Assembly: GCF_988243305.1 (NCBI RefSeq)
Contig: NZ_OZ547136.1
DNA length: 64,000 nucleotides
Reading direction: 5' to 3' (one strand)
Shown here: positions 56,586 to 62,304 of the stretch, piece after piece
Numbering within the stretch: the first letter of the stretch is position 1
Layout of the letters: every line of letters begins with the position of its first letter
The notes under the pieces: model-generated
What the model was told of the DNA's origin: nothing
What the model saw: the letters and a program-made list of their open reading frames with translations, nothing else
Database searches by the model: none
Position numbers and translations under genes: made by a program

Positions 56586-56638
56586 GGGCGGCAGAGCAGT
56601 CACGGAGTAAAACTGATACCGCCAAACGTCACCAGAAA
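56586..56638 (-). ncRNA. dicF: DicF small regulatory RNA (ftsZ-targeting)
   Basis: Reverse complement reads TTTCTGGTGACGTTTGGCGGTATCAGTTTTACTCCGTGACTGCTCTGCCGCCC followed by a T-run; matches the 53-nt DicF sequence as recalled, with its 3' terminator hairpin. Confidence 0.75.
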
Positions 56639-57935: not shown

Positions 57936-58610
57936 TCAGTCTAAGTATTGATGTATTTGTGAAACTTTACCTTTAATGGTGTAACCACCATTAAGTTCGA
58001 TGGGTTTGTAAAGCGGATTCAGTGACAACAGATAGATGTTTGGTCCGTCAATCGCAACTTTTTTTAGTGTTACGTTTGGCGTTCCTTCCAATTGGATTAA
58101 GATTATTTTTCCCACCAGTTCTCTAATGTTACTTGAGCATGGTGTGATCAGCACGGTAGATCCGTCGGGGATGGTTGGGAGGCCGTTAGAGTTTGTCATC
58201 GCATCTCCCTCAACATGCAATAAAAAAGAGTTTTCAGCGGTTTTTGTCATGACATCAACCCAATTCTTAATACCAGGAATCTCGGTTACTGGACAACTCA
58301 TATCCCAATAACCAGCCTGTTCCCACGTTAAAACGGGCAACCGGGCGATGTTGTCACTAATGTAAGGGTACTGATTCAGACGCAGATCATCGGCTTTATC
58401 GTGACCGTCCTTTCCATAAAGAATCCATTCAGGAGATTTGGAAAGCAATTTTGACAGTAGATACAAATTCTCACCGTCAGGTTTTGAAGAGCCATTTTCC
58501 CATTTTGTTACGGATACACGAGATATGCCGATTGCTTTCGCAACCTGCTGTTGGGTTAATCCAACGTCTTTTCGACGATTCCGAATACGTTCGCTGATAG
58601 TGTTTTTCAT
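57936..58610 (-). CDS. prophage CI-like repressor (XRE HTH N-terminal domain plus S24/LexA-like autopeptidase C-terminal domain)
   Basis: Track ORF 57936-58709; start placed at ATG 58610 (MKNTISERIRNRRKDVGLTQQQVAKAIGISRVSVTKWENG...) by close resemblance to the P22 C2 N-terminus; C-terminal Ser/Lys dyad context (GDAM...KK). Confidence 0.85.
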   Translation of the reverse strand: MKNTISERIRNRRKDVGLTQQQVAKAIGISRVSVTKWENGSSKPDGENLYLLSKLLSKSPEWILYGKDGHDKADDLRLNQYPYISDNIARLPVLTWEQAGYWDMSCPVTEIPGIKNWVDVMTKTAENSFLLHVEGDAMTNSNGLPTIPDGSTVLITPCSSNIRELVGKIILIQLEGTPNVTLKKVAIDGPNIYLLSLNPLYKPIELNGGYTIKGKVSQIHQYLD

Positions 58611-58624
58611 GTAACCAATGTTAC
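58611..58624. promoter_or_regulatory. candidate right operator site (PRM-proximal)
   Basis: Palindrome GTAACCAATGTTAC immediately upstream of the repressor start. Confidence 0.55.
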
Positions 58625-58658
58625 TACCAAGTGATGTTGCTATGGTTGACATTGTTAT

Positions 58659-58672
58659 GTAACTATTGTTAC
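58659..58672. promoter_or_regulatory. candidate right operator site (PR-proximal)
   Basis: Palindrome GTAACTATTGTTAC adjacent to a TTGACA hexamer (58646-58651) upstream of the cro-like gene. Confidence 0.55.
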
Positions 58673-58701
58673 CCTTCTGCTCGAAATAACAGGAGAGTTT
58701 T

Positions 58702-58917
58702 ATGTTCAAAGATGATGTTCTGCGCTATTTCAAAAAAAAGCGACTAGTAGCTGAGGCTCTTGGAATTTCACATGTGGCTGTTGTGCGGTGGAAAGCAGTT
58801 ATTCCCAAACTTCGCGCAATGGAACTGGATGAAATTACTAACGGTGAATTGAAATACAACCCAGAACTTTACAAGAAGCAGGATAGCACCTCAAACGAAG
58901 GAAAGAATGATTCATGA
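58702..58917 (+). CDS. Cro-like/YdaS-family HTH DNA-binding protein
   Basis: 71-aa ORF with SD AGGAGAG; HTH segment LVAEALGISHVAVVRW; divergent from the repressor gene. Confidence 0.7.
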   Translation: MFKDDVLRYFKKKRLVAEALGISHVAVVRWKAVIPKLRAMELDEITNGELKYNPELYKKQDSTSNEGKNDS

Positions 58918-59339
58918 AAATCAAGCATGAACACATCCGCATGGCGATGAATGTCTGGGCGCATCCGGACGGCGAAAAAGTGCCGGCTGCGAAAATTACC
59001 AAAGCGTATTTCGAGCTGGGAATGACGTTCCCGGAACTGTATGACGACAGCCATCCGGAAGCCCTGGCCCGTAATACCCAGAAAATTTTCCGTTGGCTGG
59101 ATAAAGACACCCCTGATGCTGTTGAAAAAATGCAGGCTCTGTTACCGGCGATCGAAAAGGCGATGCCGCCTTTGCTGGTGGCCCGTATGCGCAGCCACAG
59201 TTCTGAATATTACCGTGAGATCGTCGAACGGAGGGATCGGCTGGTGAAGGATGTCGATGATTTTGTTGCGTCAGCGGTTGTTTTGTATGACCAGATGAAT
59301 CGCGGCGGCCCGGCAGGGAATGCTGTGGTGATGCACTAA
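58914..59339 (+). CDS. CII-like/YdaT-family prophage regulator
   Basis: 141-aa ORF overlapping the cro-like stop; size and position match the YdaT family that follows ydaS in Rac-type prophages. Confidence 0.55.
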   Translation: MKIKHEHIRMAMNVWAHPDGEKVPAAKITKAYFELGMTFPELYDDSHPEALARNTQKIFRWLDKDTPDAVEKMQALLPAIEKAMPPLLVARMRSHSSEYYREIVERRDRLVKDVDDFVASAVVLYDQMNRGGPAGNAVVMH

Positions 59340-59361
59340 AAGCACGGTGTTCGGGGGTTTT

Positions 59362-60324
59362 ATGAGCAGCAAGCTTCATGGTCTTGTCTGGGAAGGGTGC
59401 GCCTTCACCGGCATGATCTTATCCAGGGTGGCGGTTATGGCCCGTCTTGCAGACTACAGCAATGACGAGGGCGTGTCATGGCCTGCCATTGAAACTATCC
59501 GGCGTCAGATCGGTGCAAGAAGTGAATCCACAGTGAAATCGGCTATTGCAGAACTGGCGAAAGAGGGCTGGCTGACGAAGGAAGAGCGTAAGGTCGGTGG
59601 GCGTAATGTAAGCAATATCTATCGGCTTAATGTGGAAAAACTCGAAGCAGCTGCGGCGGCGGCGCGTGAGTCATATAAACCGAAAAGAAAAATTAGCCCG
59701 GCAAAAAATGACCCGTTAACAGTTGACCCGTCAAATATTGACCCCTCAACGGTTGACCCGTCAAATTTTGATGGATCAACTGTTGATAAAAAACTGCCGA
59801 TTAGGGGGGCGATGATTGACCCCGATCCGTCAGTATTAAAACCTGATCCGTCAGATAAAAGATCTTCTTGTCCGGACGCTTCGCAACCGGACCCGCAGAC
59901 GGCTGAACAGGATTTTTTAACCCGACACCCTGACGCGGTTGTGTTCAGTGCGAAAAAACGCCAGTGGGGAAGTCAGGAAGATTTGGTGTGCGCACAGTGG
60001 ATCTGGGGACGAATCGTGAGTCTTTACGAGCAGGCGGCCAGCTATGATGGCGAGATCACTAGACCGAAAGAACCCAACTGGACAGCATGGGCCAATGACG
60101 TTCGCACAATGCGGATGCTGGATGGCAGAACTCACAGACAAATTTGTGAAATGTTTGGGCGTCTCCAGCGGGATTCGTTCTGGGTAAAAAACATCATGAG
60201 TCCGGCAAAACTCCGGGAAAAATGGGATGAACTGGTTATCCGCCTGGGGCGTTCGCCTGCGCAGCGTTGCGTGAATCACATTTCTGAACCGGACACTGAA
60301 ATTCCGCCGGGCTTCAGGGGGTAA
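59362..60324 (+). CDS. phage replication initiator (lambda O-like, HTH N-terminal domain) containing internal iteron-like repeats
   Basis: Track ORF from GTG 59347; ATG 59362 has a GGGGG SD; N-terminal winged-helix segment (LSRVAVMARLADYSNDEGVSWPAIETIRRQIG); central DPS-rich linker encoded by repeated TTGACCCGTCAA units. Confidence 0.6.
   Translation: MSSKLHGLVWEGCAFTGMILSRVAVMARLADYSNDEGVSWPAIETIRRQIGARSESTVKSAIAELAKEGWLTKEERKVGGRNVSNIYRLNVEKLEAAAAAARESYKPKRKISPAKNDPLTVDPSNIDPSTVDPSNFDGSTVDKKLPIRGAMIDPDPSVLKPDPSDKRSSCPDASQPDPQTAEQDFLTRHPDAVVFSAKKRQWGSQEDLVCAQWIWGRIVSLYEQAASYDGEITRPKEPNWTAWANDVRTMRMLDGRTHRQICEMFGRLQRDSFWVKNIMSPAKLREKWDELVIRLGRSPAQRCVNHISEPDTEIPPGFRG
59708..59790. repeat. iteron-like direct repeats (candidate phage replication origin) inside the replication gene
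   Basis: About five copies of a 12-15 bp unit (TTGACCCGTCAAAT and variants, each an internal dyad TTGAC/GTCAA) followed by an A-rich stretch GATAAAAAACTG. Confidence 0.6.
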
Positions 60325-60364: not shown

Positions 60365-60640
60365 GTGGCAAAAGTTTTTACACAAGAAGAGCGGGAAAAA
60401 ATTAAAGGGCTGATCGTGGAATTCGTACGCCTTAACGGACGAGGCACGATTCGGCAGTTATCGGATGAAATTGGTGTCAGTCATACGTCTGTCGGTCGTT
60501 TATGCATGGAGCTGGCCGCCAGTGGTGATGTTTACAATTCCGGTTACGGAGTATTCCCGTCTGAGCAGGCGCGCAAGGACTGGCAAAACGCCCGCAAAAA
60601 AACTCTCAAGGGCAAAGCTGAAGAAACCATCTGTGGTTGA
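60365..60640 (+). CDS. hypothetical small protein with predicted winged-helix/HTH segment
   Basis: 91-aa ORF from GTG with SD CAGGAGGAC; HTH-like GTIRQLSDEIGVSHTSVGRLCMELAASG. Confidence 0.5.
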   Translation: MAKVFTQEEREKIKGLIVEFVRLNGRGTIRQLSDEIGVSHTSVGRLCMELAASGDVYNSGYGVFPSEQARKDWQNARKKTLKGKAEETICG

Positions 60641-60788
60641 TCCGGACCTTATCTGGCTATTACCTGACGGAGAAATACGTCGCTACGACAGGCGTCAGAA
60701 CATAATCTGTCGCGAGTGCCGGAAGAGCGAAGTTATGCAGCGCGTACTGGCGTTTTATCAGGGGAATTTTCAGGAGGTAGCGCAGTGA
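60633..60788 (+). CDS. hypothetical micro-protein (51 aa), translationally coupled
   Basis: GTG at 60633 overlaps the upstream stop (GTGGTTGA); its stop overlaps the next start (GTGA); part of track ORF 60465-60788. Confidence 0.35.
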   Translation: MVDPDLIWLLPDGEIRRYDRRQNIICRECRKSEVMQRVLAFYQGNFQEVAQ

Positions 60789-61273
60789 GTGCACCGGCAA
60801 CCATTCTTGATATGTGCTGTGGCAGCCGTATGTTCTGGTTCGATAAGAATGACGACCGGGCGATATTTAGCGATATCAGAAAAGAAGAGCACACATTGTG
60901 TGATGGACGACGCCTGATTATCAGTCCTGACCTGATAGCAGATTTTCGAGCATTACCATTTGCAGACGCATCGTTTCCGGTTGTTGTATTCGACCCTCCG
61001 CATCTTGAGTGTGTTGGTGATAAAGCCTGGATGGGAAAGAAATATGGACGGTTGAATAAAGATACCTGGCGTGATGATTTGCGGCAGGGATTTAAAGAAG
61101 CTTTTCGTGTGTTGTGGCCACATGGCGTTCTGATTTTTAAATGGAATGAAACGCAAATATCTGTCCGCCAGATATTGGCACTAACCGACGCGAAACCAAT
61201 CATCAGCCAGCGCACCGGTAAGAACGATAAAACACATTGGATTATTTTTGTGAAGGAGGCGACCAGTGGGTAA
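60785..61273 (+). CDS. putative SAM-dependent (DNA) methyltransferase, orphan
   Basis: Track ORF 60716-61273; GTG at 60785 preceded by SD CAGGAGG; motif I-like ILDMCCGSRMF and motif IV-like FDPPHL; no adjacent restriction endonuclease gene. Confidence 0.5.
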   Translation: MSAPATILDMCCGSRMFWFDKNDDRAIFSDIRKEEHTLCDGRRLIISPDLIADFRALPFADASFPVVVFDPPHLECVGDKAWMGKKYGRLNKDTWRDDLRQGFKEAFRVLWPHGVLIFKWNETQISVRQILALTDAKPIISQRTGKNDKTHWIIFVKEATSG

Positions 61274-61520
61274 ATCAAAATGCCAGGTTTATGGCAACAA
61301 GATAGAACCGTGTACGACCCTGGCAAAATCCCTTGAGCATGATGCTGAATACACGATGCGAAAAGGTCTGCTGATATACAAAATCTGGAATGAGAGTTTA
61401 ACTCGCGGTCCTGATTTTGTGATGTTGCGTTCCGGTGAATTTTCTAAATTACCAGTTCGGGTTTCATTTTGTCCGTTCTGTGGTGAAAGTCTGAAAACGT
61501 GGGAGAACAGAAATGAATGA
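61266..61520 (+). CDS. hypothetical zinc-ribbon protein
   Basis: 84-aa ORF with Cys pairs C6/C16 and CPFC near the C-terminus; overlaps neighbours by 8 nt on each side. Confidence 0.45.
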   Translation: MGKSKCQVYGNKIEPCTTLAKSLEHDAEYTMRKGLLIYKIWNESLTRGPDFVMLRSGEFSKLPVRVSFCPFCGESLKTWENRNE

Positions 61521-61824
61521 AATTAAAGAAATACCAGTAGTACGTGATGAATATGGCTACTGGACGCATCCTGAATATGAAAAATTCTGTGACGGTCGGG
61601 AATATATTTCAACGGAAGAGTTTAACGCCTGGATGGAGGAAAATAATCTTCAATACGTCCTCTGCTTCAGAGATGAAGGATGTGCTGACCTTGATGCGTG
61701 TGATGCTGATATTTCTGCATGGGAACCGGAACGACCAGAGGGCAATGGATGGTTTATTGGTTCAATACATGACACCGAAGATGGCCCGGTTTGTGTATGG
61801 CTGAGAAATAAGGCCGAAGCATAA
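61513..61824 (+). CDS. hypothetical acidic phage protein
   Basis: 103-aa ORF, D/E-rich (DEGCADLDACDADISAWEPERPEG). Confidence 0.45.
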   Translation: MNEIKEIPVVRDEYGYWTHPEYEKFCDGREYISTEEFNAWMEENNLQYVLCFRDEGCADLDACDADISAWEPERPEGNGWFIGSIHDTEDGPVCVWLRNKAEA

Positions 61825-61952
61825 AGGCTATAAACCGACTAACAACTAAATACTGAAGATTTAAATCAGAAACGATTTTTATTAAATCCTTAACCGGAGG
61901 GATTCCTGCACCCTCAGAACATCAGGAGGCCGTCCGAAAGGGCGGTAGTGAA

Positions 61953-62135
61953 ATGCGAAAATTCAAAATAATTATTGAAACGGGAATAGCCGGTGGAGAT
62001 TTCGAGGATGAATTCGAAGTGGATGATGATGCAACACCAGATGAAATACAGGATGAAGCTAAAGATATTTTCTTTAACTACTGCAATTACTCATACCACG
62101 AAATAAAAGACGAAGAGGAAGAACAAAATGGCTGA
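61953..62135 (+). CDS. hypothetical very acidic small protein (60 aa)
   Basis: About one third of residues are D/E (FEDEFEVDDDATPDEIQDEAKD...KDEEEEQNG). Confidence 0.45.
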   Translation: MRKFKIIIETGIAGGDFEDEFEVDDDATPDEIQDEAKDIFFNYCNYSYHEIKDEEEEQNG

Positions 62136-62304
62136 TTTTGGTTCAACTAAATATAACGCCAGTTTTGAAGAATGGCATGAACTGTTAATGGATTATGCAG
62201 AGTTACGCGGTGGAAGTGCCGCTGATGCTGAAGCATGGCGTGATGATTATGAAGCAGGGAAAACACCGGTCGAAGCATATTGTGATGAGTGGGGCGATGA
62301 ATGA
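62128..62304 (+). CDS. hypothetical acidic small protein (58 aa)
   Basis: ATG 62128 overlaps upstream stop (ATGGCTGA); MADFGSTKYNASFEEWHELLMDYAELRGGSAADAEAWRDDYEAGKTPVEAYCDEWGDE; below track size cutoff. Confidence 0.4.
   Translation: MADFGSTKYNASFEEWHELLMDYAELRGGSAADAEAWRDDYEAGKTPVEAYCDEWGDE

Follow-up and report, generated by a model that had tools for sequence, protein, structure and literature searches.

The reading frames considered here lie in a 64,000-nucleotide stretch of DNA (the window) and form a block of a lambda-like prophage integrated adjacent to ompW in the E. coli chromosome. The block begins directly 3' of an O-like replication gene, and cI-like, Cro and YdaT genes, the last in the CII position, lie further upstream. 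A check of the sequence places five consecutive open reading frames on the plus strand (Table 1). These represent four genes and not five, as stated in the preliminary description of the locus, because the supposed HTH protein and the micro-OR​F that follows it are the two halves of one frameshifted lygF gene. The remaining three frames encode a small methyltransferase, a cysteine-containing protein related to rac21 and an acidic protein related to rac22.

Table 1. Features of the four-gene block, in coordinates of the window.
Feature	Position	Strand	Basis
lygF / DUF977, frameshifted	60365..60788	+	PHROG 142 match to both fragments; DNA alignment with intact lygF
lygF 5' fragment (ORF, 91 aa)	60365..60640	+	Sequence check
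Poly-A run A7 (frameshift site)	60596..60602	+	A6 in intact alleles
lygF 3' fragment ("micro-ORF", 51 aa)	60633..60788	+	Sequence check
Small orphan class I SAM-dependent methyltransferase, 162 aa	60785..61273	+	PHROG 954; PADLOC models
rac21-like small protein, 84 aa	61266..61520	+	PHROG 4030
rac22-like acidic protein, 103 aa, pI 4.1	61513..61824	+	PHROG 1372

The earlier identification of the central product as a SAM-dependent methyltransferase, with a motif IV that appears to be of the amino-methyltransferase type, is borne out, both ILDMCCGSRMF and FDPPHL being present. Residues 5-160 match PHROG 954 (E 5.2e-86), while residues 6-159 align with positions 3-163 of the 169-position PADLOC profile (MTase_II PDLC03288 / oMTase PDLC03730; E 2.3e-71); the PADLOC models concerned are REBASE-derived and belong to the Type II or orphan DNA methyltransferase class. 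Motif IV had been regarded as atypical. It proves to be a family signature: D70-P71-P72-H73 is invariant in 50 diverse homologues, as are D9, C12, D30 and R32. Furthermore, L8, C11 and G13 are retained in at least 90% of these 50 proteins, which gives a motif I of LDxCCGS, and the family profile aligns this region with motif I of PH0226. D70-P71-P72 comes after a strand formed by residues 64-69, and the fourth position of motif IV, usually an aromatic residue (Tyr, Phe or Trp), is an invariant His.

The same features characterize the other members of PHROG 954. Listeria phage A118 ORF50, Klebsiella phage ST13-OXA48phi12.4 and Gordonia phage Pickett gp57 give full-length HMM matches at 50-83% protein identity, and PHROG 954 members, like the window protein, have about 155-165 residues, invariant LDxCCG and DPPH, and a position in an early or replication module. 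Judged from its sequence, the window methyltransferase is a typical member of the family, with nothing essential different. The family occurs in 254 phage records spread over many phyla, mostly in replication or early modules, and its gene is found in 872 of the 5426 complete E. coli genomes (16%). Copies from E. coli share approximately 50% identity with those of Listeria or Streptococcus phages, and 62% with those of Gordonia phages. Some E. coli copies are pseudogenes; therefore, selection is weak in cryptic prophages. Longer family members carry N- or C-terminal extensions, which were considered as a possible source of the missing recognition domain and dropped, being heterogeneous and resembling fusions or mis-called starts. 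The preliminary description had named, as the outcome that would speak against it, a common phage Dam family flanked by ordinary genes. Essentially this is what is observed. The enzyme does belong to a common phage methyltransferase family, though not to Dam: the Pfam-A scan for the Dam family (MethyltransfD12), covering the window protein and 50 homologues, gave no match. The flanking genes are ordinary lambdoid early-region genes, namely a ren homologue and homologues of rac21 and rac22 of the Rac prophage.

The confident structure model predicts a Rossmann fold with a seven-stranded beta sheet from which several Rossmann helices are missing. According to this model, the protein is a minimal class I Rossmann core without a target-recognition domain and, because this domain is lacking, its specificity is probably short or relaxed. 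The solved structures nearest to it are generic class I or RNA methyltransferases (PH0226, Trm11, Bud23, TrmN and RsmC), with a lipid N-methyltransferase also among the best neighbours, and not DNA methyltransferases. A PDB search with the single sequence returned no significant match, the family profile retrieved generic class I enzymes only, and Foldseek against AFDB50 returned family members only. In Pfam, the window protein alone has no significant DNA-methylase match, only sub-threshold matches to generic methyltransferases, while weak matches to N6_N4_Mtase are found for 13 of the 50 family members. None of the proteins of the block scores above the cut-off in NCBIfam.

These structural features are consistent with an enzyme that is not sequence-specific for double-stranded DNA and whose target would be some other universal substrate, for instance host rRNA or tRNA, the amino group of a protein, single-stranded replication intermediates or a nucleotide. 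Such a target would account both for the missing recognition domain and for the very high conservation across phyla described above; it also agrees with the incomplete set of Rossmann helices, with the presence of Trm11, TrmN, RsmC, Bud23 and the lipid N-methyltransferase, in place of DNA methyltransferases, among the best structural neighbours, with the Pfam result for the window protein, and with the occurrence of D/NPPx motifs in RNA and protein amino-methyltransferases as well (PMC3299994). On the other hand, the family is overwhelmingly one of phages and prophages, located in replication or early modules; the REBASE-derived models point to Type II or orphan DNA methyltransferases; 13 of the 50 members retain the weak N6_N4_Mtase similarity; and adjacency or fusion to other DNA-modification genes occurs. 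In Gordonia phage Pickett the gene lies beside a further DNA methylase, fusions of the family in AFDB are named with C5-methyltransferase or HNH domains, and the record of Listeria A118 ORF50 bears a depositor's note of cytosine methylation. An enzyme that is not sequence-specific for double-stranded DNA is unlikely on this evidence. DNA is the most likely substrate, and the enzyme is best described as a probable phage DNA amino-methyltransferase. A broader proposal, rather unlikely in its turn, is that this family of about 160 residues may act in an unusual manner: it could methylate amino groups of DNA at phage replication forks, either non-specifically or on single strands only, or it could use a universal substrate other than DNA. 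If true, the 50-60% identity across phyla would reflect constraint by a universal substrate and not by DNA sequence.

The rac21-like protein contains four cysteines (C6, C16, C69 and C72), each conserved in at least 90% of homologues. They comprise one CxxC (C69, C72) and a C-x9-C formed by C6 and C16, compared with the two Cys/His knuckles, typically CxxC each, that make up the single zinc site of a usual zinc ribbon; the protein may bind zinc. The AF2 model of the 84-residue protein (pLDDT 46) is too poor for any consideration of geometry. Scans with NCBIfam and PADLOC gave no match for the rac21-like protein, and neither did the PADLOC scan for the rac22-like one. The rac21 family is restricted to Enterobacteriaceae and comprises 62 clusters, versus 7819 for the methyltransferase. 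Of the complete E. coli genomes, 894 of 5426 carry rac21 or rac22.

The relationship among the four genes is readily apparent from comparison with E. coli 55989, where EC55989_RS05340-05355 have the same gene order and the same overlaps (4, 8 and 8 nt). Their products are WP_001151117.1 (DUF977), WP_001275729.1 (methyltransferase) and the hypothetical proteins WP_000520323.1 and WP_001002676.1. The DNA of the methyltransferase, rac21 and rac22 genes is 100% identical between the two loci. In contrast, E. coli 55989 has an intact lygF with no more than 85% identity to that of the window, which shares 98.8% identity with the gene of locus L004. Upstream, its replication genes (DnaT-like, P and DUF1627) bear no relation to the O-like HTH_36 protein of the window. 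This O-like gene is in turn 100% identical to that of L004 and L006, two loci from which the methyltransferase is absent. The identity profiles reveal recombination breakpoints at every gene boundary. The frequencies also differ: lygF is present in about 3500 of the 5426 complete E. coli genomes, the full four-gene combination in 6. The genes assort independently, as a mosaic.

This bears directly on the proposal that the block is a conserved five-gene cassette with a modification or defence function. In such a functional multi-protein system, LygF and/or the cysteine-rich rac21 product would provide the methyltransferase with DNA recognition, which is attractive insofar as the enzyme has no recognition domain of its own, is coupled to rac21 and rac22, and follows a protein of DNA-binding type both here and in E. 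coli 55989. The claim of conservation fails on the neighbours of the methyltransferase. In phages of Listeria, Gordonia, Klebsiella and Vibrio, as in E. coli prophages of other types, the genes around it are unrelated to those found here: a DnaD-like loader plus DUF1642 in A118, a DNA methylase in Pickett, an integrase in X29, yfdR and a hypothetical gene in O157:H7, and another intervening gene in Klebsiella. The partners are further separated by the mosaic breakpoints and by the narrow distribution of rac21; rac21 and rac22 are also widespread without the methyltransferase, and lygF is inactive here while the methyltransferase is intact. The preliminary description was correct in finding no cognate nuclease: none is present among the neighbours from 58.9 to 63.4 kb in the PHROG and PADLOC scans, or in the syntenic RefSeq and Pfam annotation. 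Other defence components are likewise absent nearby, PADLOC recognizing only the methyltransferase, through generic methyltransferase models, and giving no PADLOC-DB match for LygF, rac21 or rac22. A joint modification or defence function of these genes is very improbable, and a new five-gene defence cassette is rejected.

The interruption of lygF can be traced to a single nucleotide. Both fragments align base-for-base with intact lygF genes of 423 nt, save for one additional A in the poly-A run, which brings a stop codon into frame at 60638-60640; there is no uninterrupted frame of about 140 codons at this position, and removal of a single A in silico restores the 140-residue lygF frame. The 5' fragment contains the winged-helix part of the gene and covers positions 1-90 of the PHROG 142 profile, and the 3' fragment covers positions 77-115 and carries the C-terminal motif NIICRECRKSEVMQRVLAFY, common to lambda Ren. 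In the intact homologue, Pfam DUF977 (PF06163) spans residues 1-135 and profile positions 1-133 of 134. The lygF gene of the Rac prophage belongs to the same PHROG 142, as does lambda ren, whose product is the Ren exclusion protein, and both ren and lygF lie directly downstream of replication genes. The C-terminal motif shared by lambda Ren and the lygF product (N-I/L-x-x-x-ECR-x-S-x-x-M-x-RVLA-x-Y) is 55% identical over 20 residues; the proteins differ in that Ren has 96 residues, whereas LygF has 140 and a DUF977 winged-helix N-terminus, and the window copy is split. The literature search on LygF and DUF977 found nothing on these families.

Six contigs checked, from the independent assemblies L011-L016, contain the A7 allele, and L002, L003 and L004 contain A6. 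The frameshift is not attributed to a sequencing error, because the exact allele recurs in independent assemblies, in which the same truncated lygF product is called. The +1 frameshift allele is genuine and heritable within the prophage lineage. Homopolymeric A runs are recognized slippage sites, and the stability of the allele, together with the overlap of its new stop with a GTG in the original lygF frame, could be read as programmed recoding or phase variation, in which a 91-residue winged-helix-only product would arise alongside the full-length one by transcriptional slippage or +1 ribosomal frameshifting, or in which termination and reinitiation at GTG 60633 would give a separate C-terminal peptide of 51 residues. 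This is hardly tenable: A6 and an uninterrupted 140-residue frame are present in every homologue for which the sequence itself was read (PhiR42_1, Rac-SA53, E. coli 55989, A37 and BEC1), the nearest copies in complete genomes, at 98.8% identity, carry the annotation of an intact DUF977 protein, the run is shorter than those that slip efficiently in E. coli, the frame CGC-AAA-AAA-ACT offers no canonical slippery heptamer, the GTG has no preceding Shine-Dalgarno sequence, and every A7 copy is 100% identical across the locus, which fits a single recent clonal mutation. For annotation, the "HTH protein plus micro-ORF" corresponds to one frameshifted, ren-like lygF pseudogene.

The overlaps between consecutive frames exist exactly where they had been reported, GTGGTTGA at 60633-60640, GTGA at 60785-60788, GTGGGTAA at 61266-61273 and ATGAATGA at 61513-61520. 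The first of these does not indicate a coupled gene pair, because its GTG is an internal Val codon of lygF placed beside the new out-of-frame stop, and the overlap is a by-product of the frameshift. The remaining three are also found at the corresponding position in E. coli 55989, where they are conserved. Shine-Dalgarno sequences precede the starts of the methyltransferase (AGGAGG, 60772-60777), rac21 (AAGGAGG, 61253-61259) and rac22 (GGGAG, 61501-61505). With these and the stop/start overlaps, serial translation of the methyltransferase, rac21 and rac22 would be possible, while the frameshift would uncouple translation of lygF from the methyltransferase start, which would then depend on its own AGGAGG. 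Overlap or abutment is also observed in neighbouring gene pairs of the operon (58914-58917, 62128-62135, 62301-62304 and 62660/62661); overlapping starts and stops are an operon-wide trait and not peculiar to this block.

Taken in its prophage setting, the block is probably an ordinary, nin-like part of the early-right operon of a lambdoid prophage, driven by pR and composed of four independently assorting genes. A scan for promoters and terminators inside the block gave no signal exceeding the shuffled expectation. In the lysogen, repression by CI would keep these genes silent; upon induction or infection, they would be transcribed from pR. The methyltransferase would then act on phage DNA as it replicates and ahead of packaging, placing methyl groups on exocyclic amino groups (N6-A or N4-C), and this methylation would shield the progeny against the restriction systems of the host infected next. 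Anti-restriction is the most plausible function, considering annotation, context and motif type. The region is a routine one that has been annotated before, its genes all belong to existing families, and its significance at the level of the locus is very little. PHROG 954 is of wider relevance, as a common, strikingly conserved and structurally minimal family with no experimental characterization in the literature searched: no experiment on any member was found, searches for 'DPPH motif', A118 gp50, M.NgoMXV and the M.EcoG series gave nothing on the family, and the methyltransferase lists of an STEC methylome paper do not include it.

Among characterized systems, the closest parallels are functional. 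PMC5778455 and PMC3299994 describe M.EcoGII, from an E. coli O104:H4 prophage, and Hia5, Hin1523 and Nma1821, from Mu-like prophages, as orphan amino-methyltransferases of relaxed specificity that are silent in the lysogen, show activity only after cloning, and are thought to protect phage DNA against many restriction enzymes. These enzymes are larger, carry DPPY and are of the alpha or beta class, whereas the window protein has His in motif IV (DPPH). A relationship to the Hia5-type enzymes was weighed and rejected, Hia5 being a 281-residue DPPY protein of the alpha class (PMC3299994). The likeness is one of functional analogy only, and not of membership. A parallel in size is provided by PamA of the S. 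aureus prophage mPhi11, a protein of 141 residues with NPPY at positions 64-67 that is active on DNA as judged by DpnI sensitivity (bioRxiv 10.1101/2024.04.17.589803). S. aureus phages are not prominent among the tblastn matches of the family, and PamA has NPPY where the window protein has DPPH; the two are likened by size and motif position, from the published description. Since PamA is active at 141 residues, a minimal methyltransferase that small can methylate DNA. Should the window enzyme be non-specific, it would constitute a compact methylation tool, like M.EcoGII and Hia5.

In the window, an E. coli chromosome with a lambdoid prophage whose integration site lies beside ompW, all five open reading frames and four stop/start overlaps claimed in the preliminary description for 60365-61824 were found exactly in place, and the absence of a nuclease was borne out. 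The description thus holds in part, as does its interpretation, but the block is not a cassette. Overlapping stops and starts are common along the entire operon, beyond the block, and reflect the usual packing of phage genes; the methyltransferase, rac21 and rac22 each have a good Shine-Dalgarno sequence ahead of the start codon. Taking into account the gene order upstream (table) and downstream, where more small genes on the same strand belong to known PHROGs without assigned function and, in syntenic genomes, extend to hokD, DUF968, RusA and the Q antiterminator, the block is part of the early-right operon, at the place of the lambda ren and nin genes. A promoter and terminator scan of the block gave no signal exceeding shuffled expectation.

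Features in the window and, where a contig handle is given, in compared contigs
Feature	Position	Strand	Remarks
DicF antisense sRNA	56586-56637	-	full-length; Rfam RF00039, 76.7 bits
LexA/CI-type repressor	57936-58709	-	upstream of block
P22-Cro-type gene	58702-58917		upstream of block
YdaT/CII-position gene	58914-59339		upstream of block
O-like replication initiator	59347-60324	+	upstream of block
Iterons	59688-59762	+	at least four, tandem, TTGACCCGTC-like; spacing 15 nt
lygF	60365-60788		frames 60365-60640 and 60633-60788
A7 string in lygF	60596-60602		A6 in intact lygF
Antisense ORF, 197 aa	60733-61326	-	TTG start
Methyltransferase	60785-61273	+	162 aa
rac21	61266-61520		84 aa
rac22	61513-61824	+	103 aa, pI 4.1
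DUF7167	61953-62135	+	pI 4.05, GC down to 36%
58-aa ORF	62128-62304	+	pI 4.05
Intact lygF copy	L004:3066-3485		
Larger 'DNA-methyltransferase' gene	L006:30055-31104		E. coli EC931
Methyltransferase pseudogene	L017:2489-2962		E. coli O157:H7 4276
Methyltransferase pseudogene	L018:2542-2986		E. coli IAI1

Nor is the arrangement conserved, as the methyltransferase has other neighbours in each lineage looked at. Listeria phage A118 has a DnaD-like loader and DUF1642 there, Gordonia phage Pickett a large DNA methylase, and Vibrio X29 an integrase; a Klebsiella phage has DUF977 with a gene in between, an O157:H7 prophage has yfdR and a hypothetical gene, and IAI1 has DUF977 then DUF7167, the methyltransferase being a pseudogene in both O157:H7 and IAI1. 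The rac21/rac22 pair directly follows lygF in ST131-type and EC931 prophages and comes after an Ead/Eae gene in Rac-SA53, and rac22 is found in places without rac21. By-segment identities reveal a mosaic: the O-like gene is 100% and lygF 98.8% identical to the BEC1 type, and over the methyltransferase, rac21 and rac22 identity is 100% to 55989, a strain with unrelated replication genes. The methyltransferase gene acts like a clean insertion/deletion that falls between the stop of lygF and the start of rac21: BEC1 has a GTGAGT start of rac21 overlapping the stop of lygF, and in the window the same GTGAGT starts the methyltransferase. The full gene combination occurs in only 6 complete genomes. 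Nothing in the block is new in kind: every part has its catalogued family, and the greater portion is identical to annotated E. coli 55989 genes.

The methyltransferase alone gave no significant match in Pfam, NCBIfam or PDB sequence searches; it is matched by PHROG 954 'DNA methyltransferase' (5e-86) and by the PADLOC models for Type II (2e-71) and orphan (6e-49) methyltransferases. Its family comprises 7819 clusters at 90% identity and 1990 representatives at 50%, with homologues, typically 45-62% identical, in 254 phage genomes (Streptococcus, Vibrio, Acinetobacter, Porphyromonas, Listeria (A118 ORF50), Gordonia, Enterococcus, Staphylococcus and a haloarchaeal virus). The gene is present in 872 of 5426 complete E. 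coli genomes, including 55989, where identical DNA is annotated 'class I SAM-dependent methyltransferase'. The two pseudogene homologues carry an annotated internal stop or frameshift, that of O157:H7 adjoining yfdR in a different prophage context. Many enterobacterial members (P0013 Leclercia, P0099 Klebsiella, P0083 Citrobacter) are longer, at 248-251 aa, and end in a conserved extension of some 88 residues (…ELESLLL…WPAEV…HHQRRLKHHINRMWLEKM…) that the window protein lacks; this C-terminal part may come from a fused adjacent gene or form an accessory domain. The antisense ORF across the gene is probably spurious, because the plus-strand product is strongly conserved as protein.

Residues invariant among 50 diverse members include D9, C12 (motif I, LDxCCGS), D30, R32 and D70-P71-P72-H73; consequently FDPPH, previously taken as an atypical motif IV, is the family signature and not peculiar to the window copy. 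The AlphaFold model is confident (pLDDT 93.7) and shows a pared-down Rossmann core without additional domain. DNA is favoured as substrate by the near-exclusive phage/prophage distribution in replication or early modules, by weak N6_N4_Mtase matches in 13 of the 50 members, by the adjacent DNA methylase in Pickett and by fusions whose names include C5-methyltransferase or HNH domains. The main rival is a substrate that is not DNA or is not sequence-specific. The literature searched held no experimental report on any member; this very common, minimal DPPH methyltransferase family has apparently never been characterised.

The supposed HTH protein and micro-ORF are one split lygF: the 91-aa ORF matches positions 1-90 of PHROG 142 and the 51-aa ORF positions 77-115. 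Compared with the intact 423-nt gene (phage PhiR42_1, Rac-SA53, E. coli 55989, A37, BEC1), the window has one extra A in a homopolymer, in-silico removal of which regains the 140-aa frame; Pfam DUF977 spans residues 1-135 of the intact protein. GTG at 60633 is an internal valine codon, lacking an upstream Shine-Dalgarno sequence, and TGA at 60638 an out-of-frame stop produced by the frameshift. The exact 91-aa product is recorded in 36 blocks of a public collection, and A7 with the same gene order occurs in all six contigs inspected, from different Logan, ENA or NCBI samples; the two compared by segment, L011 and L012, match the window at 100% identity along the whole locus. The change looks like a single mutation passed down in a circulating prophage lineage; sequencing error is ruled out by the same allele in independent samples. 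PHROG 142 contains both LygF and lambda Ren; the two are encoded directly 3' of replication genes and have a common C-terminal motif (NIICRECRKSEVMQRVLAFY / NLVFKECRQSAAMKRVLAVY), within the micro-ORF part. Residues 11-60 of intact LygF, a winged helix, show weak similarity (E 0.005) to Z-alpha domains of PKZ-type kinases, which bind Z-DNA/Z-RNA; this may be mere generic winged-helix likeness.

The 84-aa protein is rac21 of Rac-SA53 (PHROG 4030); its family is narrow, with 62 clusters whose names come solely from E. coli, Salmonella and Citrobacter. Four cysteines of the protein (C6, C16, C69, C72) are nearly invariant. Zinc binding is plausible, but there is only one CxxC knuckle, and the AF2 model was unusable. 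The acidic rac22 (PHROG 1372) gave no Pfam or PDB relatives, and neither protein matches any PADLOC model. With rac22 begins a run of three small, very acidic proteins (61513-62304, +) that in size and charge recall DNA-mimic or anti-defence proteins.

In the lysogen, CI repression would keep the operon silent; upon induction, transcription from pR would continue across the O-like gene, lygF, methyltransferase, rac21 and rac22. Produced during phage DNA replication, the methyltransferase would modify N6 of adenine or N4 of cytosine, would have a short or relaxed specificity, and would shield progeny DNA from restriction. In the window lineage, ribosomes would stop about 145 nt ahead of the methyltransferase start, so that coupling to lygF would be lost and translation would rely on the gene's own AGGAGG Shine-Dalgarno sequence.

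In the syntenic EC931 prophage, a second, larger 'DNA-methyltransferase' gene lies right after the Q antiterminator, followed by tRNA-Ile/Arg/Arg; by this comparison the window prophage may also encode two methyltransferases, the window stopping short of the matching position. The iterons inside the O-like gene, which encode a repeated 'DPS/DPL' peptide, are probably the prophage replication origin, placed inside the initiator gene as it is in lambda O. In the left arm, DicF lies near dicB-type genes, an arrangement as in Qin/Rac-type prophages.
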